The notes: generated from the letters alone by a model not told the origin. A stretch of 38,742 bases of DNA from an uncultured Eubacteriales bacterium (GCA_949744165.1 CATJWG010000174.1:1-38742); one strand, 5' to 3'; counted from the stretch's first letter, positions 19,847 to 36,785 are shown. Numbers and translations are program-made.

Positions 19847-22240
19847 TCAGAGCATGTTTTCCGTTCTCTTTATTATCTCATTCTGTACCGCGGGGGTAAG
19901 AAGGGTGAAATAGGTGCTGTAGCCTGCCACACGGACAATGAGGTCCTGATAGTCCCTGGGGGTCTCCTGAGCATTTTTGAGCACCTTGTTGTCCACGACG
20001 TTGAACTGGATATGCTTGCCGCCGTTGTACATATAGGTCCTTACCAATTCGACAAGCTTTTCAAGGTCGCTGTCGCTTTTCAGGGTACTGGGGTGTATCT
20101 TCATGTTCAGCAGTGCGGCGTTAAATGGGGTCTGGTTAATCTTCATCGCGCTGGTCAGTGAAGCGAGCGGCCCCTCGTGGTCGGTCCCCTGGGCTGGGGA
20201 CATCACGCCGTCGCACAGAGTCTCACCGCAGCAGCGGCCATCCGTGGTTGCGCAGGTATAGGAGCCGCCGGGAGCGTGGGCGGTAATGGACACGCCCGTG
20301 GGTCTGGGGGCCTCGCCGTACACCGTGCGGAAGCTCGCGGTTGTCTTTTCCCAGAACTCGTACAGCTCCACGGCTATGTCGTCGGCAAAGCTGTCGTTAT
20401 TGCCGAACTTGGGCGCCCTGAGACACTCGAGGCGCAAATCCTCATACCCCTCCCAGTCGGACTCTACAGCCTCGAACATGGTGCCCATACTTACCTTTTT
20501 GTCCTCAAACACGAGCTTTTTTATCGCGGCCATGGAGTTAGCCACGTTTATCATGCCGATAGGATTGAACATTGAGGCGTTTTCATAGAACATTTTCCTG
20601 TCGAACATGTCGCGTCCGCTGGTGATGCCGTCCTTGGTGAAGGCGGAGTGGACCACGTCGCAGAACACCTCGCGCGTTACGCGTATGAGGATGTTATGTT
20701 CCTCGTTGTACAGTCCCATGAAATATTTAAGCTGGGTCTTGAAAGCGTCCATGAAGCTGTCAAAGCTCGTGAAGTCCTTCATCTCGCCGGTGCGGGGTCC
20801 GAGCTGCTCGCCGGTCTGGGTGAGCACGCCGTTGTGCATTGTGATATCCAGTACCTTCGGCACGATGAACATGCCCAGAGCATTTATTCTCGACTTACCG
20901 GGCAGGTTCAGGTCCAGGCAGCCGGCCAAAGCGTAGTCACGAGCGTCCTCAAGGGGTATGCCCTGCTCCACAAGGCCGCCGATGTAGCTCTTGTCGGAGA
21001 CAAAGGCCGGCATACCAAGGCCAGTACGCACGAGCTCCGCGGCCTTCATAAGCAGGTCCTTCGGAGTGGTATCCGCCACGCGCACGGTAATGGTGTACTG
21101 CGGCACACGCACCTCGTAGGCAGCCTGGATTACAAGGTATGACAGCTCGTTTGTCGCGTCGCTGCCGTCGGGCTTCACGCCGCAGATAACGAAATTGTGC
21201 CAACGTGCCATGCCGGCCCACTTGTCGCGCTGCTGCGCGCCGCCGTTTACGAAGTTGAACTGCATTATCTTTATGCGCAGGCATTCCAGAAGCTCGAGCA
21301 CCTCGGCGTCGGTTATCGCGCCGGTCTCGATGTCGTGCTTGTAGTAGGGATACATATACTGGTCGAAGCGGCCGCCGGGGGTAGTGCCGTGGGCAACCAT
21401 CATCCAGTAGAAATAGAAATTCTGCATCGCATCGCGGAAGTCGCGCGACGGGTTCTCGGCTATCCAGTGGCAGGTGTCCGCCATTCGCAGGAGCTCTTTT
21501 TTGCGTGTTTCGTCCGTGGTCCCGGCCGCCTTGGCCGAGCAGGCGTCTCCGTACCGGTGATACATGCGCACCATGGCGCTCAGTGCGATTATCACGGCCT
21601 TGAGATACTGGGCCTTGTCGAAGGAATCAGGGTCATGGTAGGTTAGCTTTTGCAGCTCGTCCTCGGCCTGGTGCAGGGTGTGGCTTATTCCCTCCCGGAT
21701 TATCTTGCCGTAGTCCGGCACGAAAAAGGATAGTCCGATGCCGATGCCCCATCCAAAGCCCGCGCCTCCCGCGCCGCGTCCCTTTTCCTTGTCCTTCCAC
21801 GGCGGGCAGAGTATGCCAGAGCGAATGAAGGGCCACAGGTGCCAGTCGTCATAAAAGCGGCCCTGCCACTCGTAAATCTGCCGCCCCTGGCCGGCCCAGA
21901 AGGAGTCGTAGGAGCGCAGCTCACGCCGGTCGTCGTCGGAAATAACAAACTTTCCTCCGTCGAGCATGGTGTCAAGGTCCGCGTCATCCCAGAACGGCCC
22001 CCAGACAGAGGCCTCCATTCCGTGGGGCTGGGACGCCACATTGCCGGCTATAAGCTCGTCGTCGTCAATATATAAAGTGCGCTTGTCGAGGTAATTTGCC
22101 GTGGCGTATGCGTTCTTGAGAATCTGTGGCAGACCCTCATGCTCGCGCCAGGACTCGATAAAATACCTGGCCTTTTCCGCGCAGATGGGGTACTTGTCTG
22201 TCTTCAGGCTCTGCTGCATCCTGGCTATTCTATCCGTCAT
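19847..22240 (-). CDS. glycyl radical enzyme, PFL2/eliminase-like class, substrate unknown (GRE1)
   Basis: 797 aa. The C-terminal glycyl loop is LIVRVAGYSTYF (Gly773) and the catalytic Cys441 lies in LAGCLDLNLPGKSR, 332 residues upstream. It has the N-terminal YPICAEKARYF block and GGRFDQYMYPYY. GGAGG lies 8 nt upstream of the ATG. Confidence 0.9.
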   Translation of the reverse strand: MTDRIARMQQSLKTDKYPICAEKARYFIESWREHEGLPQILKNAYATANYLDKRTLYIDDDELIAGNVASQPHGMEASVWGPFWDDADLDTMLDGGKFVISDDDRRELRSYDSFWAGQGRQIYEWQGRFYDDWHLWPFIRSGILCPPWKDKEKGRGAGGAGFGWGIGIGLSFFVPDYGKIIREGISHTLHQAEDELQKLTYHDPDSFDKAQYLKAVIIALSAMVRMYHRYGDACSAKAAGTTDETRKKELLRMADTCHWIAENPSRDFRDAMQNFYFYWMMVAHGTTPGGRFDQYMYPYYKHDIETGAITDAEVLELLECLRIKIMQFNFVNGGAQQRDKWAGMARWHNFVICGVKPDGSDATNELSYLVIQAAYEVRVPQYTITVRVADTTPKDLLMKAAELVRTGLGMPAFVSDKSYIGGLVEQGIPLEDARDYALAGCLDLNLPGKSRINALGMFIVPKVLDITMHNGVLTQTGEQLGPRTGEMKDFTSFDSFMDAFKTQLKYFMGLYNEEHNILIRVTREVFCDVVHSAFTKDGITSGRDMFDRKMFYENASMFNPIGMINVANSMAAIKKLVFEDKKVSMGTMFEAVESDWEGYEDLRLECLRAPKFGNNDSFADDIAVELYEFWEKTTASFRTVYGEAPRPTGVSITAHAPGGSYTCATTDGRCCGETLCDGVMSPAQGTDHEGPLASLTSAMKINQTPFNAALLNMKIHPSTLKSDSDLEKLVELVRTYMYNGGKHIQFNVVDNKVLKNAQETPRDYQDLIVRVAGYSTYFTLLTPAVQNEIIKRTENML

Positions 22241-22315
22241 GAGAAAATCCTCCGTCTGTGTTATTTTATATATAACATATCATCAAAGCGTCACCGGCGC
22301 AACGAAGAAAAAATC

Positions 22316-22349
22316 GCATTTTCAACAACAATATGCTTGTTGAAAATGC
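22316..22349. promoter_or_regulatory. perfect 13-bp inverted repeat, candidate operator in the GRE1/LysR divergent promoter region
   Basis: GCATTTTCAACAA (22316-22328), 8-nt spacer CAATATGC, TTGTTGAAAATGC (22337-22349). It lies in an AT-rich 211-nt gap between the divergent starts at 22240 and 22452. Confidence 0.5.
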
Positions 22350-22451
22350 ACCTATTGAACAATAAAGATTGAAAAAATAAACAAAATGTGGTAAAATAAA
22401 TATATTTAGGCTTCCACTATTTTTAATACGGAGACCGGAGGGGCGAGACGC

Positions 22452-23459
22452 TTGAATAATATCAGTCTGCAATATTTCATTACAGCGGCGGAGGAACAGA
22501 ACATCACTCAGGCCGCGGCTAAGCTGTTCATCTCCCAGCAGGCGCTGAGCGGGCACATAAAGAAGCTGGAAAAGGCGTACAACGCCGTGTTTTTCGAGCG
22601 CAGCCCCAAACTTAAGCTGACCTATCAGGGCGAGAGGATGCTTGCTTATGCCAGACGGGTGGTTGAGGCCGAGCACGACCTTGTGGAAAAGCTGCGCGAC
22701 GACAGCGAAAACCGCCGCATACGCATGACAATAGGTCAGACCTCTACACGCGGGACCGTGTTCATGCCCACGATAATCGGAAATTATTACAAAATGTTCC
22801 CGAACGTGGTGCTGTCAATAATCTCGGGTAACCACGATTACATTGAGAACCAGCTCCAGCTCGGCAAAATCGAGCTGTACATGGGAATGTCGGCCAACAC
22901 CAATCTGCGCAGCAGCGGAAAAACGCTCTACCGCGACCGGCTGTATTTCATTATCTCCCGCGAGCTGCTCTCCCAAGTGCTCGGCGCAGGAGCGGACGGC
23001 TTTGTCGATGCACATCTCCACGGCTGCGACCTCACCGACGCCTGCCGCTTCCCGATGGCCCTGCCGCCAACCACCAGCACACTGCGCACTACCTTCGAAA
23101 CCATGTTCAACGAGCGCAGCCTCTCGCCCAACATAGTCCTGGAGACGACGGAACACGACATTCTCTTCGACGTGTGCAAAAACGGACTTTGCGGCTGCTT
23201 CGTCTCACGCGAGCTGCTTTACAGAAAGATAATGCACAAGAGCCGGCCGTCAAACGTACTGTATTTCCCCGCTGAGGGAATAACGGAGCTGGCGCACTTC
23301 AACATAGTCTACGGCAACAGGGAACCCTCCCTGCATGTGCGTTCGTTTATCGATTGCTGCCGCGAGACCATATGGCGCTCCATTGAGGAAATAGACAAGT
23401 ACCTGGTGTCGGAGAGCACAGTAAACAGTCACGTATATCCTAAAATGTCCGCGTTCTGA
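22452..23459 (+). CDS. LysR-family transcriptional regulator
   Basis: It has an N-terminal HTH (LQYFITAAEEQNITQAAAKLFISQQALSGHIKKLEKAYNAVFFER) plus a substrate-binding-domain-sized C-terminus. It is divergent from GRE1. TTG start. Confidence 0.9.
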   Translation: MNNISLQYFITAAEEQNITQAAAKLFISQQALSGHIKKLEKAYNAVFFERSPKLKLTYQGERMLAYARRVVEAEHDLVEKLRDDSENRRIRMTIGQTSTRGTVFMPTIIGNYYKMFPNVVLSIISGNHDYIENQLQLGKIELYMGMSANTNLRSSGKTLYRDRLYFIISRELLSQVLGAGADGFVDAHLHGCDLTDACRFPMALPPTTSTLRTTFETMFNERSLSPNIVLETTEHDILFDVCKNGLCGCFVSRELLYRKIMHKSRPSNVLYFPAEGITELAHFNIVYGNREPSLHVRSFIDCCRETIWRSIEEIDKYLVSESTVNSHVYPKMSAF

Positions 23460-23475
23460 GATACAGGGAATTTTG

Positions 23476-23507
23476 AAAAAGTCCTGATGTATATCGGGAC
23501 TTTTTTT
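23476..23507 (+). terminator. intrinsic terminator after the LysR gene
   Basis: AAAAAGTCC (23476-23484), 12-nt loop, GGACTTTTT, with a run of 7 T (23501-23507). Confidence 0.6.
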
Positions 23508-23688
23508 ATGCCCACAACAAAATTATTGTCGAAAATCACACCCAAAACTGTTGGAGTCAGCATTAAATCCGTGGTAAACTCCTAAACATAAAGCACAAAA
23601 ACCGCAGCGGCATAATTGGGGTTTTTGTTCATTTTATTTTAGTCAGGCAGACAACAGCCGGACTAAGCGCAAAAAACAGAAAAGGAGA

Positions 23689-24186
23689 ATGCAGGCATTG
23701 GAAAAGCTGAAAAAAGACCGCCTGTTGGGAATCATTGTCCTTGTCATTGCGGCCTTTTTTGCCTACTTCACTGGCAAATTGGGCTCGACAAACTTTGAGG
23801 GCGACCCTGGGCCAAAGATGTTCCCCTACATGGGCTCGATTATCATGGCGTTGTGCGGCATAATTCTCTTGGTAAAACCCGAGAAAAAGGAAAAGGGGAA
23901 ATTCCTCAGCCGCGATGAGCTTAAGCACGCCGCGCTCCTGTTCGGCATCTACGTGCTGTTCGTTGTAATGATGAAGTATCTCGGCTTTGTAGTAACCGCA
24001 CCGATTGTGCTGTTTGTCGTGTCATTCCTGTTTTCGAAAATTTCTGACCCCGGCGCGACGGCAAGGGCTCGTGTAATCCGCAGCCTTATCTACTCCGTGG
24101 CCGTAACCGCCGCGCTGTATCTGGTATACGTCGTGGCGCTGGACGCGAAGCTTCCCAGCGGCGCGCTGCTCAAGCTGTTCAGATAA
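23689..24186 (+). CDS. tctB: tripartite tricarboxylate transporter small membrane subunit TctB
   Basis: 165 aa with four predicted TM helices, immediately upstream of tctA. The start may instead be TTG at 23698, which has better spacing from AAAGGAG. Confidence 0.7.
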   Translation: MQALEKLKKDRLLGIIVLVIAAFFAYFTGKLGSTNFEGDPGPKMFPYMGSIIMALCGIILLVKPEKKEKGKFLSRDELKHAALLFGIYVLFVVMMKYLGFVVTAPIVLFVVSFLFSKISDPGATARARVIRSLIYSVAVTAALYLVYVVALDAKLPSGALLKLFR

Positions 24187-24200
24187 GGGAGGAAAAGAAA

Positions 24201-25682
24201 ATGCTCAATTACCTGCTCCAGTCTCTGGGCACCCTGTGCTCGTTTACAGGCATAATGTACATACTCATCGGCTCCATCGCCGGATTACTCTTCGGCTCCC
24301 TGCCGGGACTTTCCGGCGGCACGATAATGGTTTTGCTGCTGCCGATAAGCTACAAGATGGACCCCGTGCTGGCTATGGCGCTTTTCATGTCCATACACAT
24401 CGGCTCAACCTGCGGCGGATGCATCGGCTCAATCCTTCTCGGTATACCCGGCACCAGCGGTTCTATCGCCACGACATGGGACGGCTATGAATTTACCAAG
24501 CAGGGCGACCCAGTACGCGCGCTGTCCGCGGCCGTTGTTTGCAATTTCATTGGCACCATACCTTCCATAGTCATCGCCATGGCGGCCTGCCGCACGCTGG
24601 CAAACCTTGGCGTTAAGCTTGGCCCCTGGGAATACGCGGCTATGTGCTTCTGCGCGGTGTGCATGGTTATAGGTCTGTCCAAGGGAAACATGGTCAAGGG
24701 CTTTGTCGGCGTGGGCCTTGCAGTCCTGATTGCCTCGATAGGTACCGACCCCATAAACGGCAGCGTGCGTCTGACATTTGGTTCGATGGATATGTACAGC
24801 GGAGTCAACGTCATCAACATCATGCTCGGTCTGTACGCGGCAAAGCTAATTCTGCTCGAGTACGCCCGCCGGAGCCGCGGCGCAAAAACGAACATAAAAG
24901 TCCGGCGCTTCAAGTGGCCCGGCAGGGACCTCAAAGACAACAAAGGCAACATGATACGCTCGTTTGTAACCGGAGCGTTTATCGGCTTTCTGCCCGGGCT
25001 GGGCGCGCCGACCTCCACCGTAATCGCCTACGCCAACGAAAAGAGTCTGGCTAAAGACTCAGAGAAGTGGGGCCACGGCGCGATAGGCGGAGTTATCGCG
25101 CCCGAAATCTGCAACAATGCCGGAATCGGCGGAGCAATGATACCAATGCTGGCGCTTGGCATCCCCGGCGACGCGATAATGGTCCAGTTTATGGCCGTTA
25201 TGTCCATTCATGGCATAACCTCCGGACCTATGCTCATGAAAACGAACCCAGACATGGTATACATGCTCTTCACAGCGGCGATGGTCGCGGCAATATTCGT
25301 TCTGCTGGTGCAGACTCTGGGTATGCCGATGTTTCCGAAATTCATTTCCTTCCCCTACCACTATCTATATCCGGCAATAATCGTTGTCAGCTTCCTCGGC
25401 TCATACATGACCGCCGGCAGCATCTTCGGCGTGGTTGTTACCGTGTGCGCCTGCGCGCTGGGGCTTGCGATGGACTATTTTGCCATACCAATAATGCCGT
25501 TTATCATGACCTATATTCTCGCCTCTCTGTTTGAGAAAAACGTACGGCAGGCCATGAACTTCTCGCTCGTGGGTGTACAGGAATTTTTCACCCGTCCCGT
25601 GTCGCTGATATTCATTCTCGCTGGGTTGGCCGTACTGGCAATACATTTTGTAAAGCCTCTTATAAGTAAGGTCAGGGAGTGA
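24201..25682 (+). CDS. tctA: tripartite tricarboxylate transporter permease TctA
   Basis: 493-aa polytopic protein. TctA-type blocks are present (GSLPGLSGGTIMVLLLP, GIPGTSGSIAT, GFLPGLGAPTS, GIPGDAIM). GGGAGG RBS. Confidence 0.88.
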   Translation: MLNYLLQSLGTLCSFTGIMYILIGSIAGLLFGSLPGLSGGTIMVLLLPISYKMDPVLAMALFMSIHIGSTCGGCIGSILLGIPGTSGSIATTWDGYEFTKQGDPVRALSAAVVCNFIGTIPSIVIAMAACRTLANLGVKLGPWEYAAMCFCAVCMVIGLSKGNMVKGFVGVGLAVLIASIGTDPINGSVRLTFGSMDMYSGVNVINIMLGLYAAKLILLEYARRSRGAKTNIKVRRFKWPGRDLKDNKGNMIRSFVTGAFIGFLPGLGAPTSTVIAYANEKSLAKDSEKWGHGAIGGVIAPEICNNAGIGGAMIPMLALGIPGDAIMVQFMAVMSIHGITSGPMLMKTNPDMVYMLFTAAMVAAIFVLLVQTLGMPMFPKFISFPYHYLYPAIIVVSFLGSYMTAGSIFGVVVTVCACALGLAMDYFAIPIMPFIMTYILASLFEKNVRQAMNFSLVGVQEFFTRPVSLIFILAGLAVLAIHFVKPLISKVRE

Positions 25683-25749
25683 GCCGGAACCAATTTAAAG
25701 AGTACCGCGGCAAAAACCGCGTACCAATAAAACAAGGAGGACCAATGAA

Positions 25750-26859
25750 ATGAAAAAGAGTATAGCTATTATTCTCGCGCTTGTGATGCTTCTTGCTCTG
25801 TGCGCCTGCGGTGACACAGGCAACAGCAGCAATACCCCCGCCCCGGCAAGCACCCCTGCTCCCGCGGATAACAACGCCCCCGCAGACAATATCCCTCCGT
25901 CCGACGATAAGCCGGAGATAAGCTGGCCGACTGACACCGTGACGGTTTACGTTCCTGCCGACGTCGGCGCGCCGCTGGACCTGGCCACACGAGTTCTGGT
26001 TGACTGGCTGACTGAAAAAACCGGCGGCACCTTCGTGGTGGAAAACGACGCTGCCGGAGGCGGCGCACGTGTCGCCAACCTCACCACCCAGGGAGAGAAG
26101 GACGGCACCGTACTCATGTCCTGTGGTTGCGGACAGCTTATCTCCTCATACAATGGCACCTGGGACATCAGCCTTGCCAATCCCGAACAGTTCAGTATAA
26201 TCGCACCGAATATTGGTCAGGCTCTGCCCTCTGGCGGCGTGTTCGTCACACAGCCCGACGCACCTTATAACAGTATTCCCGAGCTGGTGGAGTATGTCGA
26301 GGCTAACCCGAATACCGTCACTGTAGCCGTTGTCATGGGCACCCCGCATGAGGTGCGGCTCAAGCTCATAACCGAGCACTACGGCATCTCCGACAAGGTC
26401 CGCTGGGTCTCCTGCACTAACAACGACGCGCTTACCGGCCTGCTCGGCGGCACTATAAATCTCGGCTGCCTTACTGAGACCGTAGGCCCGCAGTATGTTG
26501 CCGACGGCAGCCTCAAGGGTCTGCTCAACAGCCGCACCGAGCGCGGCTACGCCGATGATGAGCTCAAGGAAACTCTCGACTCCATCCCCATAGTACCTGA
26601 TATCATCGGCGGCGACTGTGAAAGCCTTGTCATCGCCTGGCCGATGCTGGTTGTCGGTCCCGGCGGCATGGACGACGAGCTTTGCAAGTACATCAACGAC
26701 TGCATCGCCGACATAATAAACAGTGAGGAGTACATGGAACGCGTGTACGGCCTTGGCGGCACGAACACCTACCAGCCCATGACGGTTGAGGAAATCCGCC
26801 AGGTCGTCGCCGACGCCGACGCTCAGCTCGCGGAAATCTGGGCCAATTTTGAAGGCTGA
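25750..26859 (+). CDS. tctC: TctC/Bug-family solute-binding lipoprotein
   Basis: It has a signal peptide plus lipobox (LLALCACG), a Pro/Ala/Asn-rich tether and a Bug-family block (FVVENDAAGGGARVAN). AAGGAGG RBS. Confidence 0.8.
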   Translation: MKKSIAIILALVMLLALCACGDTGNSSNTPAPASTPAPADNNAPADNIPPSDDKPEISWPTDTVTVYVPADVGAPLDLATRVLVDWLTEKTGGTFVVENDAAGGGARVANLTTQGEKDGTVLMSCGCGQLISSYNGTWDISLANPEQFSIIAPNIGQALPSGGVFVTQPDAPYNSIPELVEYVEANPNTVTVAVVMGTPHEVRLKLITEHYGISDKVRWVSCTNNDALTGLLGGTINLGCLTETVGPQYVADGSLKGLLNSRTERGYADDELKETLDSIPIVPDIIGGDCESLVIAWPMLVVGPGGMDDELCKYINDCIADIINSEEYMERVYGLGGTNTYQPMTVEEIRQVVADADAQLAEIWANFEG

Positions 26860-26870
26860 AAGAAATAGAA

Positions 26871-26898
26871 AAAGGGACCGCTCCGCGGCCCCTTTTTT
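26871..26898 (+). terminator. intrinsic terminator after tctC
   Basis: AAAGGGACCGC, loop TCC, GCGGCCCCTTTTTT. The stem is 8 bp with one mismatch, followed by a 6-T tract. Confidence 0.6.
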
Positions 26899-27139
26899 GA
26901 GAAGGTTTTGCCCCGCCGCGAGACTCTATTGTCCCGTCCCGCAATAAGGATGAGACAGGCAGTCGCACTCCTTACGCAGAGCATCTTCCTTGTTCTAAGT
27001 GGGCAAAAATCGAGTTCGAGATAGGCATAATCACTAAAACACCGTATAAATTTTCTGCAAAAACTACATATTTACATTTCAGCAGCAGAAAGGTTTATTA
27101 TGATGGTATAAAACGGAAAATTAAATTTGGAGGTCAGTT

Positions 27140-29542
27140 ATGGACACCCTGGAGCGAATAGAGAAGATAAAAAGGCGCGTGATAGTTGACCGCTATCCCA
27201 TCTGCATAGAGAAATTCCGCATTACGCTGGACGTGCGCGAGCACAGCCGCAACGACCATATCATGATTCAGCGCGGCAAAATACTGCGTGCCTGCGCTGA
27301 GCGCATGCCCATAGCCATAGGCGAGGAGGAGCTTATTGTAGGCATTGCATCAAGCAAGCACATGGGGCTTGAGATTGACCCAGACTACGGCATTTGGCCG
27401 CAGAATGAGATAGATTCGCTCAAGGCTGACGGCTATCTCATAGACCCCCAGGACGAGAAGGACCTGCAGGAGCTCAACAAGCGCTATCAGCCCGACACGC
27501 TCATAGGCCGCATGGGAGACGTGCTTTATAACGAGCCGCGCATCATGAACATGCTGCGCGCAGGGCTCATTCTGCCGCCGTGGAAGGATAAGCGCAGCGA
27601 GCGCGGGGTCGGCGGCGGCTACGCGCAGTCCGGTCTCGGCCTTGGCCCGTCGCTGGTGCTGCTGTGTGTGGAGTACGACAAACTAATTAAAAACGGCACA
27701 CGCGAGCTTATCCGTCAGGCAAGAGAGGAGCAGGACAAAATTCGCTTCTCCGACATGGAAGCGCTCGACAAGCACCGATATTACGACGCCGTGGTCATGG
27801 CCTTCGAGGCTATGGAGATTTTGGCCGGACGCTATGCCGCGCTGGCAAGGGACATGGCGAAAAAGGAGACTAATCCTGAGCGCCGGGCCGAGCTCGAGCA
27901 GATTGCCGAGACCTGCGCGAGAGTGCCGATGTATCCGGCGCGCTCCTTCCGTGAGGCGGTGCAGTGCTTCTGGTTCCAGGTTCTGTTCCTCAGCCCGAGC
28001 ACCACGCTGCCCGGTGGGCGCTTTGACCAGTACATGTACCCCTACTACAAGCATGACCTCGACGCGGGTCTCATAACGCGGGAGCAGGCTACGGAGCTGC
28101 TGTGCCTGCTGCGTCTTAAGGACATGGAGCTCAACCGCACCTCCGGCAGCGAGCTGCGCAAGAAAAACTCCGGCATGGCCAAGTGGCACAACTACACCAT
28201 CGGCGGCGTAGACCCAGTCACGGGCGAGGATGCGACCAACGACCTGACCTATATGCTCATTGACTCGGCCATGATAACCAAAACGCCGCACTTTACCCTA
28301 ACGCTGCGCGTACATGAGAAAACGCCTCCGGAGCTGATGGAAAAGTCGCTGGAGTGCGTGCGCCTCGGCCTCGGAATGCCGGCCTTCGTCAGCGACGGAT
28401 CCTACACGGCGACCTTCGCCTCGCGCGGCTGTCCGCTGGAGTTCGCGCGCGACTTCGTCATGACTGGCTGTCTGGACGGCAATCTTCCCGGCAAGTCCCG
28501 CACCGGCCCCGTGCCTATGGTGACCTTCCCGCTCATTTTCGATATCTTCCGCCACGGAGGAATTGACGTTAAAACAGGACTGCGCGTCGGTCCGAACTGC
28601 GGCAGCTTCGCGGACTTCAAAAGCTACGATGAGCTCTTCGCAGCGCTGAGCGAGGAGATAAAGTACATTCTCGGCCTCGTGTGCGAGAAGAACAACGTCG
28701 AGCTGGCCATAACGCAGGAAATACTTTTCGACCCTCTGCGCAGCGCGCTGATGTATCAGGGCATTGAGTCCGGCAAGGACACATGGAAGCGCGTGATGCC
28801 CTTTGAAAACTGCGCGGTGGTCAATCCCATAGGCATGGTAAACCTCGGCGACTCTCTCGCTGCGATAAAGAAGCTGGTGTTTGACGAAAAGAAATACACC
28901 CTTGCCGAGCTTCAGGCAGCCCTGGACGCCGACTGGGCCGGCTATGAGGACATGCAAAGCGACTTCCTTCACGCCCCGAAGTACGGCAACGACATTGACT
29001 ACGTGGACAACATCGTCTCTGAGTGCTACAAGCTGCTCAACGACACGGTGGCTGGACTGCCTAACATTCTCGGACGGCCGACGATTGCCACAGGCATATC
29101 GATAACCTCACACCAGCCCGGCGGCCAGCTCACCGGAGCCACTCCAGACGGCCGAAAGGCCGGCACGATTCTCGCCGACGGCACAACCTCACCCATGCAC
29201 GGTATGGACACCTGCGGTCCGACCTGCGTGTTCAAAAGCGCGATGAAAATTGACCAGGACCCCATGCAGGCCACACTGCTGAACATGAAGTTCCACACCA
29301 CCGCGCTGAAAACAAGCGCCGATCTGGCAAAGTTAGGCGCGATGATAAAGGCATATCTGACCCATGGCGGCAAGCAGGTGCAGTTTAACGTCGTTGACCA
29401 GGAGACGCTCAAAAAAGCGCAGGAGAGACCCGAGCAATACCGAGATCTCGTGGTGCGCGTGGCCGGCTACAGCACCTATTTCGTAACGCTGTCCAAGGCA
29501 ATGCAGGATGAGGTGATAGAACGCACCTCCATGGGCCTGTGA
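27140..29542 (+). CDS. glycyl radical enzyme, PFL2/eliminase-like class, substrate unknown (GRE2, paralogue of GRE1)
   Basis: 800 aa. The glycyl loop is LVVRVAGYSTYF (Gly776) and Cys444 lies in MTGCLDGNLPGKSR. It shares long blocks with GRE1 (PPWKDK, GGRFDQYMYPYYKHD, GLGMPAFVSD, AAIKKLVF, QFNVVD). GGAGG RBS. Confidence 0.9.
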   Translation: MDTLERIEKIKRRVIVDRYPICIEKFRITLDVREHSRNDHIMIQRGKILRACAERMPIAIGEEELIVGIASSKHMGLEIDPDYGIWPQNEIDSLKADGYLIDPQDEKDLQELNKRYQPDTLIGRMGDVLYNEPRIMNMLRAGLILPPWKDKRSERGVGGGYAQSGLGLGPSLVLLCVEYDKLIKNGTRELIRQAREEQDKIRFSDMEALDKHRYYDAVVMAFEAMEILAGRYAALARDMAKKETNPERRAELEQIAETCARVPMYPARSFREAVQCFWFQVLFLSPSTTLPGGRFDQYMYPYYKHDLDAGLITREQATELLCLLRLKDMELNRTSGSELRKKNSGMAKWHNYTIGGVDPVTGEDATNDLTYMLIDSAMITKTPHFTLTLRVHEKTPPELMEKSLECVRLGLGMPAFVSDGSYTATFASRGCPLEFARDFVMTGCLDGNLPGKSRTGPVPMVTFPLIFDIFRHGGIDVKTGLRVGPNCGSFADFKSYDELFAALSEEIKYILGLVCEKNNVELAITQEILFDPLRSALMYQGIESGKDTWKRVMPFENCAVVNPIGMVNLGDSLAAIKKLVFDEKKYTLAELQAALDADWAGYEDMQSDFLHAPKYGNDIDYVDNIVSECYKLLNDTVAGLPNILGRPTIATGISITSHQPGGQLTGATPDGRKAGTILADGTTSPMHGMDTCGPTCVFKSAMKIDQDPMQATLLNMKFHTTALKTSADLAKLGAMIKAYLTHGGKQVQFNVVDQETLKKAQERPEQYRDLVVRVAGYSTYFVTLSKAMQDEVIERTSMGL

Positions 29543-29573
29543 GCACACGTCCACAGCAAGGGAGACCGATGAA

Positions 29574-30512
29574 ATGACTGAAAACTACATGGAAGTAACC
29601 GCTCCGATATTCAACATCCAGAGCTATTCCATACATGACGGACCGGGCATAAGGGTGACGGTGTTTATCAAGGGCTGTCCACTGCGCTGCCTGTGGTGCG
29701 CCAATCCCGAGTCAAATCTGGCACGTCCTCAGCTCATGACATATATCGCCAAATGCACCGGCTGCGGCCGCTGCCTTGGCTCCTGTCCTGAGAAAGCCAT
29801 CTCCATAGGTTCAAAAGACGGGAAGGTGGCCGCGCTGACCGACCGAACGCTGTGTACAGAGTGCGGAGCGTGTATCTCCTCCTGTCCTCAGGAGGCGCGC
29901 GAGCTGGCCGGCAAGGAAATGACGGTACGGCAGGTGCTGGAAAAGGTGGAACGCGACAGGCTGTTCATCGAGACGAGCGGCGGCGGAATGACGCTCTCGG
30001 GAGGAGAGTGCCTCATGCATCCGGAATTTTCCGAGGCGATGCTGCACGCCGCGCACGAGGCGGGCTTCCACACAGCCGTGGAGTCCTGCTCCTTCGCCCC
30101 CAACGATGTTGTCGAGCGCGTGTTCTCCCTGGCTGACCTGTGTCTGCTGGACATAAAGCACATGGATTCCATAACGCACAAAAAGCTCACGGGCGTGCCC
30201 AACGAGCTGATACTCGACAATATCCGCTATACCTATCACATTCTGAAAAAACAGGTGATAGTACGCGTCCCGACCATCCCCGGCTATAACGACTCTGAGG
30301 CCAACATCACCGCCACGGCCCGCTTTGTGGCGCAGAAGTTGGGAAACGACGTGCCTGTACACCTGCTGCCCTACCACCGTTTGGGAGAATCGAAGAACGA
30401 GAGCCTTGGCAAGGATATGGACCTGTCGATAGAGGTCCCCTCCGACGAGCACATGCAGTGGCTGCTGGAAATTGTCAAAAATTTTGGGCTGGACGGACAA
30501 ATCGGCGGATAA
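29574..30512 (+). CDS. glycyl radical enzyme activating enzyme (radical SAM)
   Basis: The radical-SAM motif is CPLRCLWCANPE (CxxxCxxC). Two ferredoxin-like clusters (CTGCGRCLGSCP, CTECGACISSCP) and GGMTLSGGE are present. At 312 aa it is typical of PFL2-class activases. Confidence 0.9.
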   Translation: MTENYMEVTAPIFNIQSYSIHDGPGIRVTVFIKGCPLRCLWCANPESNLARPQLMTYIAKCTGCGRCLGSCPEKAISIGSKDGKVAALTDRTLCTECGACISSCPQEARELAGKEMTVRQVLEKVERDRLFIETSGGGMTLSGGECLMHPEFSEAMLHAAHEAGFHTAVESCSFAPNDVVERVFSLADLCLLDIKHMDSITHKKLTGVPNELILDNIRYTYHILKKQVIVRVPTIPGYNDSEANITATARFVAQKLGNDVPVHLLPYHRLGESKNESLGKDMDLSIEVPSDEHMQWLLEIVKNFGLDGQIGG

Positions 30513-30516
30513 TTAC

Positions 30517-30549
30517 AAAAAAACGGAAGCTGCAAGGCTTCCGTTTTTT
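30517..30549 (+). terminator. intrinsic terminator after the activase gene
   Basis: AAAAAAACGGAAGC, loop TGCAAG, GCTTCCGTTTTTT. The GC core is 8 bp, extended by A/T pairs, with a 6-T tract. Confidence 0.7.
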
Positions 30550-30598: not shown

Positions 30599-31996
30599 AT
30601 GAATAAAAAAACACTTATAACGGATTTTACCTCGGGCTGTGTGCCGAAGCAGCTCGGTATTTTCATGCTGCCGTTTATGGCCTCAAACGCCATGCAGGTG
30701 CTCTACTCGCTGGTGGACATGATTATCGTCGGACGCTTTGTGGGAAAAAGCGGCCTGTCCGCCGTGTCACAGGGCAGTATGCTTATGATATTCGTCACAT
30801 GCATCTGCATGGGCTTTTCCACGGGCGGGCAGATTATAATCTCGCAGTTCATAGGCGCGGGCCGGCAAAAGGAGCTCGGCAAAATAATCGGCACGATGTT
30901 CACGAGCATGATAATTCTCAGCCTTGCTCTGACGGCTCTGGTCCTTGTACTAAGAAATTTCGCTCTGGACCTTATCAGCATACCTGATGAGGCGCGGGAC
31001 ATGGCAATGGATTACATTGTGATATGCGGCGCAGGCACCATCTTCACCGGCGGCTACAACCTCATATCCTCGATTCTGCGCGGTATGGGAGACTCTCGAC
31101 ATCCCTTCATCTTCATCACTATCGCTTCGGCTGTGAACCTGATTTTGGATTTGCTGTTTACGGGCTTTCTGGGATTTGGCGTCGCTGGAGCTGCGACGGC
31201 CACGATTTTAGGACAGGCGGTGTCGGTGGTCGTATCGCTGCGCCTGCTCTACCGTCGCAGGGCGGAGTTTTACTTTGACTTTATGCCAAAAAGCTTCCGG
31301 CCGGACGCACCTCTGTTCGTGGAGATTTTCCGCATGGGCGTGCCGCTGGCGCTCCAGGCTTGCGCTATAAGCATCTCAATGATGTTTGTAAACCGCTTTA
31401 TAAACACCCTTGGTGTCACTCCCTCGGCTACCTTCGGCACTGGAATGAAGCTTGACGACATCTCAAACAAGCTCACTCAGGGTGTACAGTACGCCGCCGC
31501 GCCGATGATTGGCCAGAACATCGCCGCAAAAAAGCACGGACGGGTCAAGTCCGTGTTCGGCTGGAGCCTTGTCCTGTCCAGCGTTGTGTCGGCCTGCTTT
31601 GTGCTCTGCTATGTGCTCATTGGCAGGGAGATGTTCTCGCTTTTCATCAGCGACGCGGATGTGCTCGACCTGTCGCACGTGTTCATAAGCGCAATACTGT
31701 GGACCTTCCCCGGTATGGTGCTTATGCGCTCAACACACGCGCTTCTCCAGGGAACGGGGCGCACGACAATAATCATGGCGCTGGCCTTTGCCGACGCAGG
31801 GTTGAGGCTGGTACTCAGCTACCTGTTCGGCATAAGCTGCGGCATGGGTTTTTACGGTTTTGTGCTCGGCTTCGGTCTCGCTCCCTACGGCGTGGCCCTG
31901 CCGGGGCTGATATATTTCTTCATGGGCCGCTGGAAAACAGCAAGGCTGTCCTCGGACAGTGATTTTGAAATGACTCAGGAGGCGGAAAATGGATAG
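30599..31996 (+). CDS. MATE-family efflux transporter
   Basis: About 465 aa with 12 TM-type hydrophobic segments. N-terminal MATE signatures are present (PFMASNAMQVLYSLVDMIIVGRFVG..LSAVS). ATG 30599 is chosen; the track's 30458 start overlaps the activase gene and its terminator. Confidence 0.85.
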   Translation: MNKKTLITDFTSGCVPKQLGIFMLPFMASNAMQVLYSLVDMIIVGRFVGKSGLSAVSQGSMLMIFVTCICMGFSTGGQIIISQFIGAGRQKELGKIIGTMFTSMIILSLALTALVLVLRNFALDLISIPDEARDMAMDYIVICGAGTIFTGGYNLISSILRGMGDSRHPFIFITIASAVNLILDLLFTGFLGFGVAGAATATILGQAVSVVVSLRLLYRRRAEFYFDFMPKSFRPDAPLFVEIFRMGVPLALQACAISISMMFVNRFINTLGVTPSATFGTGMKLDDISNKLTQGVQYAAAPMIGQNIAAKKHGRVKSVFGWSLVLSSVVSACFVLCYVLIGREMFSLFISDADVLDLSHVFISAILWTFPGMVLMRSTHALLQGTGRTTIIMALAFADAGLRLVLSYLFGISCGMGFYGFVLGFGLAPYGVALPGLIYFFMGRWKTARLSSDSDFEMTQEAENG

Positions 31997-32615
31997 GAAA
32001 AAGCTTATAGGAGAAATCGTGGACCTTGAATGGGATATGTTCCAGCGGGTACACAACAACGGAGGCCGCGCCTCCTGTCAGAACGACAGCGAGACCTTCT
32101 ACGGAATGCGCTGCGGCCAGTTTCTGGCCTGGGAGACGCCGGTGCTGGAAAGCTACGCGCGGGACCTGAAATCAGCTCAGGGGTCCGGACGCAACCTGCT
32201 CGCAGAAAAATACCTGCGCATGATGGAGAGCACCTTCCCTCAGGAGTACGAGCTTCAAAAGGACCGTCTGCCGGAGGTGAGCGAGCGCGCCGCGCGGCTG
32301 GCGGAGGAAATTTGCATTGAGATGATTGTTCAGACGGCGGCTGTGCGCGATAGCTTTCCGCTTGTCGGCGGGGCTGGCCGTCCGCTTTACAGCAGCGAGG
32401 ACCGTCCCGGCGATACCTCAGTTGAGACCTATCAGCGCGGCGAGTTGCTTACCTACTCGGAAACGACGCTTGAGCTGCTGCACGCCCAGGTCTTTGAGAT
32501 GAAGGCGCGCGGAGAGAGCCTTGCCGCGGCTGAGCTGGAAAACTCGGTGTGCCATTACGGATACGAAAGCATACAACAGGCGGAGGACTGTCTCCGCTCC
32601 AGACAGGGAGGTTAA
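31989..32615 (+). CDS. conserved hypothetical protein, DUF4125-like (assignment from memory)
   Basis: 208-aa soluble protein. The block WDMFQRVHNNGGRASCQND..TF..MR resembles what I recall of DUF4125. The start overlaps the MATE stop by 8 nt. Coding is likely; the family name is unverified. Confidence 0.55.
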   Translation: MDRKKLIGEIVDLEWDMFQRVHNNGGRASCQNDSETFYGMRCGQFLAWETPVLESYARDLKSAQGSGRNLLAEKYLRMMESTFPQEYELQKDRLPEVSERAARLAEEICIEMIVQTAAVRDSFPLVGGAGRPLYSSEDRPGDTSVETYQRGELLTYSETTLELLHAQVFEMKARGESLAAAELENSVCHYGYESIQQAEDCLRSRQGG

Positions 32616-32618: not shown

Positions 32619-33308
32619 ATGACAGCACAGGAAATTTTGGAAAAATATGACACGCTGGCAAAAAGCGCGGGAGACGGGGAGGCCGAGCATTTTCTCGCAG
32701 AACAGTGCACCGGCTACGACGAGGCCGCGCCGGAGGATTTGACGGGGCGCGCCGCGCTGTACAACGAGCTCGGCGGCTTTTACTGCGCCGCAGGCAGCTA
32801 CGAAAAGAGCGAGACGTCCTTTAACAAGGCGAAGGAACTGCTTGACGGCAGCGCGGAGCTTCGCTGCAGCGACAGCCGCGCCGCCGTCCTGGAAAACCTC
32901 GGCAGCCTTTACAGGCTTACCGGACAGTACGACAGGGCGCTTGAACAGTTTAACGCTGTTAAGGAGATATACGACGAGGTGGAGGTGCCGCACGAGCTCT
33001 ACGCGGCCTGTATCAGCAACATCGGCCAGGTATATCTTGACGCCGGTCAGGCTGAGGAGGCTGAGGAGTTTTTCAGGGGAGCACTGGCCATAGCTCAGAC
33101 AGAGCCAGCGGATGAGCTGATGATGGGCACAAGTCTGGGCGGCATGGCCTCAGCCCGGCTGCTGCGCGGGGATGCCGCGGGCGCGGCGGAGCTTCTGCGC
33201 CGTGCGGGAGCACATTTCAACGTGCTGGGAGGTCAATATACCGAGGCGGGAGAGTATTTCATAACAACGGCAGACGAGCTTGAGGGCATAGGCAATGAAG
33301 GCGCTTGA
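32619..33308 (+). CDS. tetratricopeptide repeat protein
   Basis: 229 aa. It has repeated TPR-like helices (LYNELGGFYCAAGSYEKSETSFNKAKEL; LENLGSLYRLTGQYDRALEQFNAVKEIY; ISNIGQVYLDAGQAEEAEEFFRGALAI). The GGGAGG RBS lies inside the upstream gene's end. Confidence 0.65.
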   Translation: MTAQEILEKYDTLAKSAGDGEAEHFLAEQCTGYDEAAPEDLTGRAALYNELGGFYCAAGSYEKSETSFNKAKELLDGSAELRCSDSRAAVLENLGSLYRLTGQYDRALEQFNAVKEIYDEVEVPHELYAACISNIGQVYLDAGQAEEAEEFFRGALAIAQTEPADELMMGTSLGGMASARLLRGDAAGAAELLRRAGAHFNVLGGQYTEAGEYFITTADELEGIGNEGA

Positions 33309-34215
33309 ACTCAGCCGGAGATACTATTTTGACTGCTGCGAGCCGGTTTTGCGCAAGGAAGTGCCCGAGCTTCTGCCGCGCCTTGCCGCAGGGCTTGTGG
33401 GCGAGGGCTCGGAATGCTTCGGCTGGGACGACGAGCTCTCGCGTGACCACGACTGGGGACTGCGTGTGTGCCTGTTTTTCCCTGACGCACAGCTCCGCGA
33501 GCACGGAACTGCCCTGCTCGCGGCGATAGATAAGTTTCCACGCGAATACGAGGGCTTTCACCTCTGTCCGCCGGTACAGGGCCTCAAGCGCGGTGGGCTG
33601 TATGGCGTTGGCGAATTTTACGCACAGACCATAGGCCGTCCCTGCGCTCCCGAGACGGCGCGCCAGTGGCTGTCCGTGCCCGAGGTCAGCCTTGCCGCGG
33701 CGGTAAACGGCGAGGTTTTTGCCGACCCCTTGGGTGAGTTTTCCGCTGTGCGTAAAAAGCTGCTGGCAGGCTATCCGCGGGACGCGCGGCTGCGCATGCT
33801 GGCCCTTCACGCCGCCCTGGCGGGGCAAACGGGGCAGTACAACATGCTTCGCGCGAGCCGCCACGGAGAGGCTCTGGCCTCCAAGGCCGCAAAATTCAAA
33901 TTCATTGAGCACGCCGCGGCTATATTTTTCCTGCTGCGCGGGCGCTACCGACCCTTTTACAAGTGGCTCTACCGCGCCCTGCGCGAGCTGCCGGGCGGCG
34001 GGAGTATGCACTCGCTCTTGTTGGAGCTGGCTCAATCGGACGATATTCGGCGCGAGTGTTCCCTGACCGAGAGCGTGAGTGCCGCGCTCATCGCCGAGCT
34101 GCGCGACGGTGGCCTGAGCGACAGCGGCAGCGATTTTCTCATGGACCACGTACCTGAGCTTTTAGGACGCATTGAGGATACAGAGCTGAAAGGCGAGCCG
34201 CTTTCCCTGCTGTGA
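33295..34215 (+). CDS. nucleotidyltransferase-fold-like protein, DUF4037-like (assignment from memory)
   Basis: 306 aa. The N-terminal GEGSECFGWDDELSRDHDWG fits the pol-beta NTase pattern G-S-x11-D-x-D. The start overlaps the TPR gene stop by 14 nt. Confidence 0.55.
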   Translation: MKALELSRRYYFDCCEPVLRKEVPELLPRLAAGLVGEGSECFGWDDELSRDHDWGLRVCLFFPDAQLREHGTALLAAIDKFPREYEGFHLCPPVQGLKRGGLYGVGEFYAQTIGRPCAPETARQWLSVPEVSLAAAVNGEVFADPLGEFSAVRKKLLAGYPRDARLRMLALHAALAGQTGQYNMLRASRHGEALASKAAKFKFIEHAAAIFFLLRGRYRPFYKWLYRALRELPGGGSMHSLLLELAQSDDIRRECSLTESVSAALIAELRDGGLSDSGSDFLMDHVPELLGRIEDTELKGEPLSLL

Positions 34216-34226
34216 GAGGTGGGACG

Positions 34227-34925
34227 TTGAACAGGATTTTACTTGTTGAGGACGACGCCGCGCTCGGCCGCGGCGTCTCGCTGGCATTGCAGGACGCGCA
34301 GACCGCGCTCACTCATTGCCGCACACTTTCTCAGGCGCGGCAAACGCTCGAGCGGGAGAGCTTTGACCTGCTCATATTGGACATAAACCTGCCCGACGGC
34401 AGCGGCACGGAGCTTTTACGCGAGTTCAGGCTTAAAAGCTCCGTGCCGGTAATACTGCTCACAGCCAACGACCTGGAAACGGACATCGTCTACGGCCTTG
34501 AGTCCGGCGCGGACGACTATATCACCAAGCCATTTTCTCTCGCTGTTCTGCGCTCACGTGTGAAGGTTCAGCTCCGGCGCGAGCGCGCGTCTCACTCGCC
34601 CGCCGTGGAGCAGGACGGATTTTATTTCGACTTCGACAGCATGGATTTCCGTAAAAATGGGCAAAGCGTGGAGCTGAGCAAGACAGAGCAGAAGCTCCTG
34701 CGCGTGCTGGTGTCCAGCCGCGGTGTGACGCTCTCGCGCGCTGAGCTTGTTGACCGCGTGTGGACCGACGGAGCGCAGTACGTGGATGAAAACGCGCTGT
34801 CGGTGACGGTCAAACGCCTGCGCGGTAAGCTCGAGGACGAGCCCGGCGCGCCGAAATATCTCAAAACGGTGTACGGCATCGGCTATGTCTGGTGCGCGCC
34901 GGAGCGTGGCGGTGAGGGGCTATGA
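34227..34925 (+). CDS. OmpR/PhoB-family response regulator
   Basis: Receiver domain blocks (ILLVEDD, LLILDINLPDGSG, PVILLTA, GADDYITKPF) plus a winged-helix domain (LSKTEQKLLRVL, VKRLRGKL, TVYGIGY) are present. TTG 34227 has GAGGTGG upstream. The track's GTG at 34212 is 5 codons longer. Confidence 0.9.
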   Translation: MNRILLVEDDAALGRGVSLALQDAQTALTHCRTLSQARQTLERESFDLLILDINLPDGSGTELLREFRLKSSVPVILLTANDLETDIVYGLESGADDYITKPFSLAVLRSRVKVQLRRERASHSPAVEQDGFYFDFDSMDFRKNGQSVELSKTEQKLLRVLVSSRGVTLSRAELVDRVWTDGAQYVDENALSVTVKRLRGKLEDEPGAPKYLKTVYGIGYVWCAPERGGEGL

Positions 34926-35815
34926 CGATTTATGTGTGTCTGGCCGCTGCTTTAGCTGCCGCCGTGGTGATAATTTACGACCGACTCCAGACCGCGCGCA
35001 CCATGGACCGGTTTGAGCAAATGCTCGACGAGGCCGCGAGCGGACGGTTTGAGGTCTTGCGCTACAACGAAAGCCGCATGTCCAGCATAGAGAGCCGCAT
35101 GGCGGATTATCTCGCAGCCGCGGCGCTCTCCGCACAGGAGCTTCAGGCCGAGCGCGACAAAATAAAAACGCTCATCTCCGACATCGCCCACCAGACACGC
35201 ACGCCCATAGCCAATGTGCTGCTCTATACCCAGCTTCTGCTTGAGCAGGAGCTGGACACTGACAGCCGCGAGTGCGCCGCCGCTCTGAGCGATCAGGCGG
35301 AAAGGCTCAAAAGCCTTATTGACACACTCATAAAAACCTCCCGCCTTGAAAGCGGAACGCTGGACCTGCACCCTCGGCAAGGTGAGCTTGCGCCATTGCT
35401 GACCTCCGCCGCGGCACAGTTCACACACGCTGCAGCGGAAAAGGGGTTGTCGCTGACCGTGCTCCCCTGCGGCGATACGGCGGTTTTTGACCTGAAGTGG
35501 ACGCGCGAGGCGCTGTGCAATCTGCTGGACAACGCAGTGAAGTACACCCCCTCAGGCGGGAAAATTACGCTGTCGGTACAGCCCTACGAGCTCTTCTGCC
35601 GCGTTGACGTATGCGACACCGGCCCCGGCATCCCCGAACAGGAGCGTCCGAGGATTTTCCAGCGCTTTTATCGCGCGGAAAACACCTGGGAGAGCGAGGG
35701 CGTCGGTGTTGGGTTGTATCTGACGCGCCAGATTATGGAGTGTCAGGGCGGATTTGTGAAGGTTTACTCCAACGTAGGCCAGGGCAGTATGTTTTCGCTT
35801 TTCTTACCTAAATAG
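34922..35815 (+). CDS. sensor histidine kinase with one TM helix and no extracytoplasmic domain
   Basis: The H-box is ISDIAHQTRTPIAN, the N-box is NLLDNAVKYTP, and the G-boxes are DTGPGIP and GVGVGLYL. Only one N-terminal hydrophobic helix precedes the coiled linker. There is a 4-nt overlap with the RR gene. Confidence 0.9.
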   Translation: MTIYVCLAAALAAAVVIIYDRLQTARTMDRFEQMLDEAASGRFEVLRYNESRMSSIESRMADYLAAAALSAQELQAERDKIKTLISDIAHQTRTPIANVLLYTQLLLEQELDTDSRECAAALSDQAERLKSLIDTLIKTSRLESGTLDLHPRQGELAPLLTSAAAQFTHAAAEKGLSLTVLPCGDTAVFDLKWTREALCNLLDNAVKYTPSGGKITLSVQPYELFCRVDVCDTGPGIPEQERPRIFQRFYRAENTWESEGVGVGLYLTRQIMECQGGFVKVYSNVGQGSMFSLFLPK

Positions 35816-35838
35816 AGGACCCGTTGGGTCCTCTATTT
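35811..35838 (+). terminator. perfect 12-bp hairpin overlapping the kinase stop codon
   Basis: AATAGAGGACCC (35811-35822), loop GTT, GGGTCCTCTATT (35826-35837). The T-tract is short. Confidence 0.55.
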
Positions 35839-36000
35839 AGTCAGAAGGACTCGCTCCGTTCTGCGCCTCAGCTCCCGCTCTCCGGTCGGGAGCTTCGACG
35901 CTCACTCCGCACAGAGAGTTTTTTGTCAGGCGCATATTCTGACAAAAAACGATTGAATTTTATTTCGCCGCTCCGGCGGCGAGACTCTACGAGATCTTTT
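35839..36000 (-). repeat. modular intergenic hairpin repeat (copy E, inverted relative to copy C)
   Basis: Its reverse complement aligns module by module with 17497-17668 and with parts of 6672-6937. Internal stems are GCTCCCG/CGGGAGC and TTTTGTCAG/CTGACAAAA. Confidence 0.65.
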
Positions 36001-36039
36001 AAATTGAAATCTTGCAAAACTGTTAGATTTGAGAAAGAA

Positions 36040-36101: not shown

Positions 36102-36113
36102 AGGCGAAACATT

Positions 36114-36785
<672 letters not shown>

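Follow-up and report, generated by a model that had tools for sequence, protein, structure and literature searches.

What do two related glycyl radical enzymes (GREs) accomplish when their genes enclose a LysR-type regulator and a tripartite tricarboxylate transporter (TTT) and are served by one activating enzyme? GREs drive anaerobic conversions that include the production of trimethylamine, p-cresol, skatole and H2S and the degradation of hydrocarbons. Whole GRE clades still lack an assigned function (2026 review, PMC13450708), and the locus considered here, at positions 19847-30512 of a 38,742-nucleotide stretch from an uncultured Eubacteriales bacterium (GCA_949744165.1, CATJWG010000174.1:1-38742; this whole stretch is called the window below), is a compact entry into such a clade, with two paralogues, an activase, a binding protein and a regulator. 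A preliminary description of this DNA had suggested, in guarded terms, import of an anionic small molecule and its processing by two related radical enzymes, and the analysis reported here supports that suggestion. The model that we favour, with confidence only a little better than even, combines carboxylic-acid uptake with two GREs that have diverged in specificity, carry Asp two residues after the catalytic Cys (C-x-D, hereafter CxD) and are served by one activase; the locus is most likely an inducible, LysR-controlled uptake-and-conversion module for one small organic acid or two closely related acids.

The two GREs are full-length paralogues that end in RVAGYSTYF, in agreement with the preliminary description. 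GRE1 (797 aa; 19847..22240, minus strand) and GRE2 (800 aa; 27140..29542, plus strand) are 41% identical over their full length, and both have the domains of the GRE superfamily, PFL-like (PF02901; 518 bits, E = 4.8e-155, rounded 5e-155, in GRE1 and 480 bits, E = 2e-143, in GRE2) and Gly_radical (PF01228; 103 bits, E = 1.4e-29, and 102 bits). The radical Gly stands in RVAGYS, and the Cys predicted 332 residues before it is present in each enzyme, as C441 with G773 in GRE1 and as C444 with G776 in GRE2; C441 and C444 align with C433 of glycerol dehydratase (GDH) and C489 of CutC. All the sequence blocks said to be common to the pair (PPWKDK, GGRFDQYMYPYYKHD, GLGMPAFVSD, GCLDxNLPGKSR, AAIKKLVF and QFNVVD) were recovered. 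An AlphaFold model of GRE1 (pLDDT 90.5) matches GDH, 1,2-propanediol dehydratase (PD), HypD and CutC with template-modelling (TM) scores of 0.90-0.92. Directly 3' of GRE2 lies the activase, a radical S-adenosylmethionine (SAM) enzyme (29574..30512, plus strand; TIGR02494, 344.5 bits against a cut-off of 174.35) in which the CxxxCxxC motif reads CPLRCLWC and is accompanied by two ferredoxin-type CxxCxxCxxxC clusters, again as first described. No second activase was found in the window, and this single enzyme is predicted to place the glycyl radical on both G773 and G776.

The Cys loop reads G-C-L-D-x-N-[LI]-P-G-K-S-R in both enzymes, with D443 of GRE1 and D446 of GRE2 as the Asp of CxD. All eliminases and isomerases, together with HPAD and IAD, keep CXE, and no enzyme of the CxD kind is listed in the June 2026 review (PMC13450708); where GD, PD, HypD, HpyG, HpzG, CutC, IslA, HpsG, HpfG, HplG, YbiW and PflD have CXE, GRE1 and GRE2 have C-L-D. 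This Asp is invariant among homologues, at 119 of 119 in the GRE1 type and 118 of 118 in the GRE2 type. Of the 197 GRE open reading frames (ORFs) in all fetched loci, 131 share 38% identity or more with GRE1, and all but two of these (129) have CxD; at 36% identity or below the motif is CxE or another. A search of 1.84 billion cluster representatives gave a similar boundary: nearly all of the first 17 or so clusters (50% identity) have CxD, and farther out lie CxE (71) and other motifs (53). Some clade members have the variant loops GCIE, GCIP or GCLG instead of CxD. The motif is not unique by itself because many other non-CXE GREs exist; judged by their sequences, GRE1 and GRE2 are nevertheless members of a distinct and coherent clade with a C-x-D Cys loop. 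The GRE superfamily is known, and the CxD clade is a variant inside it for which no published function was found in the literature. GRE1 homologues at 56-85% identity all have generic names or none, GRE2 homologues range from 54% to 98% identity, and the closest named database relatives are proteins of Oscillospiraceae metagenome-assembled genomes labelled 'hypothetical protein' or 'formate C-acetyltransferase'.

Neither GRE clusters with a characterised enzyme, since profile and structure searches yielded neither a score above a cut-off nor a close relative. None of the NCBIfam equivalogs for CutC, HypD, HpsG, HpfG, IAD, the HPAD large subunit, PRK09983 formate C-acetyltransferase-type proteins and PFL reached its curated cut-off: the best scores were 509 bits for HpsG (cut-off 1000) and 460 bits for CutC (cut-off 1050), the IAD and HPAD cut-offs were missed more than two-fold, and the PFL2-3 subfamily model was missed as well (518 and 505 bits against 678). 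The best solved relatives, GDH, CutC, PD, HpsG, AAD, IslA and HypD, score about equally at 29-31% identity, and no close relative, whether by sequence or by fold, was found among solved structures. Individual scores were 433 bits for GDH, 383 for AAD, 318 for MASS, 281 for HPAD and 278 for BSS, and, for GRE1 and GRE2 respectively, 370 and 338 bits for HpyG (8id1), 369 and 329 for YbiW (8id7) and 312 and 298 for PflD (8id0); the fold match was somewhat lower to HPAD (TM normalised to HPAD length 0.80-0.81) and to BSS (TM 0.80-0.86). Known classes are likewise a poor fit in their diagnostic features. A formate lyase would have two adjacent Cys, whereas the window enzymes have one (G-C-L-D) and score 119 and 89 bits on TIGR01255 against a cut-off of 994; the small accessory ORFs of an X-succinate synthase are absent, and BSS and MASS score below the eliminases; the HPAD/IAD subclass is contradicted by CXD in place of CXE, by lengths of 797 and 800 aa and by the lack of a small-subunit ORF, a mismatch that lowers the case for HPAD or IAD identity and not that for decarboxylase function. 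The picture is less clear for the sulfonate-binding Arg/Gln/Arg triad of the C-S lyases (IslA, IseG, HpsG): the segment around F172/L174 contains no Arg or Gln, GRE1 alone has a basic residue at R/K646, and the window encodes no sulfite reductase. Full-text literature searches found no published pathway for this clade or for this gene arrangement, and the June 2026 review includes no such enzyme (PMC13450708). Work on benzene activation was followed as a lead to the function of the clade and set aside as not relevant.

The active-site pocket, mapped by pairwise sequence alignment only, departs from those of GDH and CutC at most positions. GDH H164 and CutC D216 correspond to F172 in GRE1 and L174 in GRE2, GDH H281-S282 to H284-G285 and P286-S287, GDH Y339 and CutC F395 to W347 and W349, GDH E435 and CutC E491 to D443 and D446, GDH D447 to A454 and P457, CutC T502 to N453 and G456, CutC Y506 to M457 and M460, and GDH Y640 and CutC L698 to V650 and I653. 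In this alignment the leaving-group acids of GDH (H164, D447) and the choline contacts of CutC (D216, T502, Y506) are not kept, and the pocket appears mainly hydrophobic, with W347, M457, V650 and I652 among the lining residues. IAD has a fully hydrophobic pocket in which the Glu at Cys+2 acts via water, and the mapped GRE1/GRE2 pocket is reminiscent of it; the shorter Asp would favour a water-mediated role like that in IAD. Between the GRE1-type and GRE2-type families, 66 positions are conserved within each and different between them, and these cluster in the active-site segments at residues 151-175, 276-290, 326-346, 451-468 and 651-663; since the differences are concentrated there and the same loop is kept, the same chemistry with different specificity is to be expected. 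One such contrast is an extra basic residue, R/K646, conserved in the GRE1 type and replaced by I/V in the GRE2 type.

The genes between the GREs point to the kind of substrate. A tctB-tctA-tctC operon with a lipoprotein-anchored binding protein, recognised earlier, was borne out by profile matches that all exceed their cut-offs: the small membrane subunit TctB (23689..24186, plus strand; PF07331, 79 bits, E = 4e-22), the large permease subunit TctA (24201..25682, plus strand; PF01970, 391 bits, E = 6e-117) and the TctC-family lipoprotein (25750..26859, plus strand; PF03401, 36.5 bits), which has a signal peptide, a lipobox (LCA/C) and a Pro/Ala linker. The best solved relative of TctC is BugD, at only E = 2e-08; assigning its ligand by similarity to BugD, TphC or other solved binding proteins was tried and rejected because these are too divergent. 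TctA is 55-63% identical to the TctA that adjoins GRE1 orthologues in two related loci (L003 and L007; L numbers denote related loci throughout), and three other lineages (L003, L007, L100) have tctBAC directly 3' of a GRE1-type gene, so the association is not one of chance. Other GRE1-type genes adjoin CitMHS/MatC or TRAP carboxylate importers. As MatC/CitMHS takes the place of TctBAC in L167, the transporter class is interchangeable, and a carboxylate importer is the rule.

A wider survey drew loci from a scan of species-representative genomes, a metagenome scan and exact-protein look-ups; neighbouring ORFs were clustered and the cluster representatives annotated, loci with opposite-strand shadow ORFs over the GREs (cluster c13) were re-annotated by tblastn, and counts were taken over 103 dereplicated clade loci. 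A TTT, TRAP, MatC/CitMHS, MFS or SBP5 transporter is present in 45 of the 103 (MatC/CitMHS in 16, TRAP in 15, MFS in 8, TTT in 7 and SBP5-ABC in 7), an activase in 48 and two or more clade GREs in 34. The commonest enzyme neighbours are MmgE/PrpD-like and PGA_cap proteins (27 loci each; for example L004:8578-9957, L086:2086-3231, L120 and L107), followed by URO-D-like proteins (19), acyl-CoA ligase (13), HGD-D (11) and CoA-transferase III (11), and regulators of the PucR type (HTH_30; 14) are more usual beside clade GREs than LysR. Among these neighbours, the PrpD-like protein has iminodisuccinate epimerase and cis-aconitate decarboxylase as its nearest relatives, the PGA_cap protein has the lasso-peptide C-alpha epimerase MslH, and the CoA-transferase has formyl-CoA, succinate-glutarate and mesaconate transferases. 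Because the commonest enzyme neighbours resemble C-alpha epimerases of carboxylates, there is a hint that the clade acts on chiral acids; together the neighbours point to carboxylic acids as substrates, probably chiral, without naming one. The CoA-transferase, HGD-D, URO-D-like, PrpD-like and PGA_cap genes stand beside relatives and not in the window, and the 38.7-kb window was also confirmed to contain no shell proteins, aldehyde or alcohol dehydrogenases, sulfite reductase or CoA-transferase. A UbiX/UbiD-type aromatic decarboxylase context was considered for some relatives and dismissed, as the 'Flavoprotein' gene near them belongs to the sporulation pair DpaA/DpaB.

The pairing of the two GRE types extends beyond this genome. 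Of the 13 distinct contexts of GRE2-type genes, nine include a GRE1-type gene as well (the window, L084, L087, L088, L092, L001 from Blautia, L085, L167 and L168). Such pairs are present in Oscillospiraceae, Blautia and other Clostridia, and the clade as a whole is widespread among Clostridia of the rumen and gut and in anoxic sediments. The skeleton of a GRE1 divergent from LysR with GRE2 further on is repeated in L167 (GRE1 82%, LysR 52% and GRE2 83% identical), whose GRE1 operon includes, in place of tctBAC, genes for a MatC/CitMHS carrier, a CoA-transferase, HGD-D and two URO-D-like proteins. Clade loci often have one activase for two or three paralogues, and arrays of three CxD-clade GREs with a single activase are common (for example L085:7555-20319, L147, L159 and L087).

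The locus is predicted to be regulated by the LysR protein. The gene (22452..23459, plus strand, TTG start; HTH_1, PF00126, 57.5 bits; LysR_substrate, PF03466, 58 bits) is divergent from GRE1, as previously noted, and L090 and L167 show the same arrangement of a LysR orthologue (52-55% identity) and a GRE1 orthologue. The region between GRE1 and lysR contains a palindrome with 14-bp arms (22315..22350), situated after the predicted GRE1 promoter and before the start of GRE1, and a candidate for an operator or a leader attenuator; on the GRE1 mRNA strand it reads as a hairpin with a perfect 13-14 bp stem followed by a U-run. Its half-site, TTGTNGAAAAT, is found again before tctB (23526) and, allowing one mismatch, before GRE2 (27050), with 8 hits against 1.7 expected. 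The tctB leader (in 23509-23688) folds unusually well (z = -3.2) and also contains a hairpin and U-run; by their predicted folds, the hairpins of the GRE1 leader (22241-22451) and the tctB leader could be attenuators instead of, or besides, LysR operators. Neither leader element matched an Rfam family, and Rfam and tRNA scans of the window returned no match. Three terminators, each a hairpin with a T-run, were found where the preliminary description had placed them: an intrinsic-type hairpin 3' of lysR (23476..23508, plus strand; recognised by sequence reading), a bidirectional one 3' of tctC (26869..26897) and one 3' of the activase (30517..30549, plus strand). At lysR and the intergenic regions beside it (22001-24000) the G+C content is lower, about 0.50, than on either side (0.55-0.58), a pattern that would fit a history in which the lysR-tctBAC block came later between two divergent GREs that had been neighbours, as they are in L084, L087 and L092.

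In the favoured model, the acid would be bound by TctC, imported by TctAB and sensed as co-inducer by LysR, which would switch on GRE1, tctBAC and the GRE2-activase unit. The activase, using SAM and a reduced [4Fe-4S] cluster, would install the radical on G773 of GRE1 and G776 of GRE2, from where it would move to C441 or C444, and the resulting thiyl radical would attack the bound carboxylate substrate, with D443 or D446 as proton relay, probably through a water molecule. GRE1 and GRE2 would share one chemistry and each act on its own member of a pair of isomers or homologues, and the product would enter central metabolism directly or leave the cell, possibly through an adjacent MATE pump; in relatives it would be taken on by CoA-transferase and HGD-D-type enzymes.

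As to the reaction itself, radical decarboxylation is the single most likely type, a tentative choice that we put somewhat below even; 1,2-elimination or isomerisation of hydroxy- or amino-carboxylic acids is nearly as likely, and a reaction other than decarboxylation, elimination or isomerisation we consider unlikely, though by no means negligible. As eliminases or isomerases, both GREs would abstract H from the carbon bearing OH or NH, D443 or D446 would act as base and the neighbouring group would leave, giving an oxo-acid for central metabolism, with the paralogues taking two stereoisomers. The closest sequences and folds are indeed those of GDH, PD, HypD and CutC, an acidic residue is retained at Cys+2, isomer-specific GRE paralogues are known, and the clade neighbours near iminodisuccinate epimerase (MmgE/PrpD) and MslH (PGA_cap), as well as Iso_dh and HGD-D 2-hydroxyacyl-CoA-dehydratase-like pairs, would suit chiral hydroxy or amino acids; however, the CXE of every known eliminase and isomerase is missing, GDH H164 and D447 and CutC D216, T502 and Y506 are replaced by F/L, A/P, N/G and M, and the mapped pocket is largely hydrophobic. 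The preference for a decarboxylase is in turn weakened, since eliminases are slightly the nearer relatives in sequence and fold: GDH scores 433 bits with TM 0.90-0.92, and among decarboxylases AAD reaches 383 bits and HPAD 281 bits with TM 0.80. A bolder proposal, which we think unlikely for now, is that the CxD clade is a new functional GRE class with a reaction new to the superfamily, its substrates being (poly)carboxylic acids that are imported and are non-aromatic or chiral; the reaction might be, for example, decarboxylation of allylic or alpha-substituted di- or tricarboxylates, with paralogue arrays covering stereoisomers or homologues and PrpD-like and PGA_cap epimerases feeding them.

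Other alternatives concern how the parts of the locus relate. GRE1 might convert the imported acid, such as a tricarboxylate, and GRE2 the product of GRE1, a sequential scheme that would explain why GRE2-type genes mostly occur with GRE1-type genes (9 of 13 contexts) and GRE1-type genes are often alone, why TctBAC is associated with the GRE1 type and why R/K646 is basic in the GRE1 type and I/V in the GRE2 type; we consider it improbable because GRE2-type genes stand alone with their own transporter, regulator and activase in L086, L169 and L170, because the common three-paralogue arrays (L085, L147, L159) are a better fit to parallel specificities, and because sampling was centred on GRE1. 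It is less probable still that LysR and TctBAC were inserted between an older divergent GRE1/GRE2 pair and serve an unrelated acid: the GREs of the closest relatives (L084, L087, L092) are directly divergent with nothing between them, and the dip in G+C to 0.50 at lysR, against flanks of 0.55-0.58, would fit an insertion, but the LysR orthologues divergent from GRE1 orthologues in L090 and L167, TctBAC 3' of GRE1 orthologues in three other lineages and the half-site common to three promoter regions all speak for a functional link. Frequent adjacency and a shared single activase might also suggest that GRE1 and GRE2 form a heteromeric enzyme, or that one is a non-catalytic or spare partner; with radical Gly, catalytic Cys, Asp and the whole Cys loop kept in both, each type alone in several genomes and no heteromeric GRE catalytic pair in the 2026 review (PMC13450708), this is very improbable.

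We caution that several observations weigh against the favoured model of acid uptake and two CxD GREs of diverged specificity. We infer the function wholly from sequence, and TctC is too divergent from solved binding proteins for its sequence to suggest a ligand. The pocket mapping depends on pairwise alignment, and that with CutC is poor in the loop before F172. The exact order GRE-LysR-TTT-GRE-activase, which the preliminary description had proposed to check for conservation, is not conserved among related loci, and the transporter type varies; each GRE type also occurs alone (GRE1 type in L003, L004 and L094; GRE2 type in L086, L169 and L170), and the half-site motif is not conserved upstream of the orthologues in L090 and L092. 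Finally, the loci were mostly retrieved by similarity to GRE1, so the co-occurrence counts are biased and are to be read as indicative.

Beyond the third terminator the functional neighbourhood probably reaches 34215, taking in a MATE efflux transporter (30600..31996, plus strand; Pfam MatE, TIGR00797) whose linkage to the locus is possible and, identified by Pfam on the same strand, DUF4125 (31989-32615), a TPR protein (32619-33308) and DUF4037 (33295-34215). The longest MATE ORF, from a GTG at 30458, overlaps the activase stop and runs across the terminator at 30517-30549; the start is most likely the ATG at 30600, which is preceded by GAGGGA as a putative ribosome-binding site. MATE genes adjoin related GREs in L024, L105/L096 and L168. 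The extended boundary is proposed because the DUF4125/TPR/DUF4037 trio recurs beside related GREs: these families stand next to GRE1 or GRE2 orthologues in L001, L085, L090, L104 and L126 (L085:1186-3818, L001:4139-5657, L090:5396-6109, L104:1658-2251), with DUF4125 directly 3' of GRE1 in L090 and L104. DUF4125 and DUF4037 proteins (LrcL, LrcM) are expressed in an anaerobic limonene ring-cleavage operon according to a 2025 paper. A PADLOC search with the trio gave nothing meaningful, and DUF4125 as an Fe-S small subunit of the HPAD or BSS type was ruled out, as it has no Cys clusters. The remainder of the window (34212-38742) encodes a response regulator, a histidine kinase, an ABC ATPase and a large permease, shows synteny with the GRE1-type loci L154 and L101, and is probably a module for sensing and efflux of the bacitracin type that has no relation to the locus. 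Upstream of the locus lie the housekeeping genes mreC, maf, dnaB/dnaI-like, miaA, sepF, divIVA, ileS, lspA and rluD, a Clostridia-type chromosome segment.

Identification of the substrate would add the fate of an organic acid to gut and sediment carbon flow and might add a radical reaction type. The locus is attractive for experiment and not astonishing, because many GRE clades remain unassigned; its interest lies in a clade that departs from the CXE of every characterised eliminase and isomerase and of HPAD and IAD.

Set beside known systems, the window enzymes resemble GDH, PD, CutC and HypD in their PFL2-type fold of about 800 aa, their Gly loop, a Cys loop with PGK and a ferredoxin-domain activase, and these four also score highest by sequence (up to 433 bits); they differ from them in having CXD instead of CXE, in an identity of only 29-31%, in the absence of microcompartment or aldehyde-processing genes from the window and in the proposed import of the substrate by carboxylate transporters. 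With the arylacetate decarboxylases (HPAD, IAD, PAD and AAD) they would share a carboxylate substrate, a hydrophobic pocket and the absence of a second general acid. HPAD and IAD are larger (870-900 aa), belong to a structural subclass of their own and retain CXE, whereas AAD has the same size as the window GREs and likewise no small subunit but differs in its C-V-L loop. A precedent for two related GREs that apply one chemistry to two stereoisomers, the arrangement we favour for GRE1 and GRE2, is provided by HpyG/HpzG, which act on N-methyl-cis-4-hydroxy-L/D-proline, and YbiW/PflD, which act on anhydroglucitol/anhydromannitol 6-phosphate (PMC13450708), although these enzymes have CXE and polar pockets, score no higher than other GREs and act on substrates that are not taken up via TTT or CitMHS systems.

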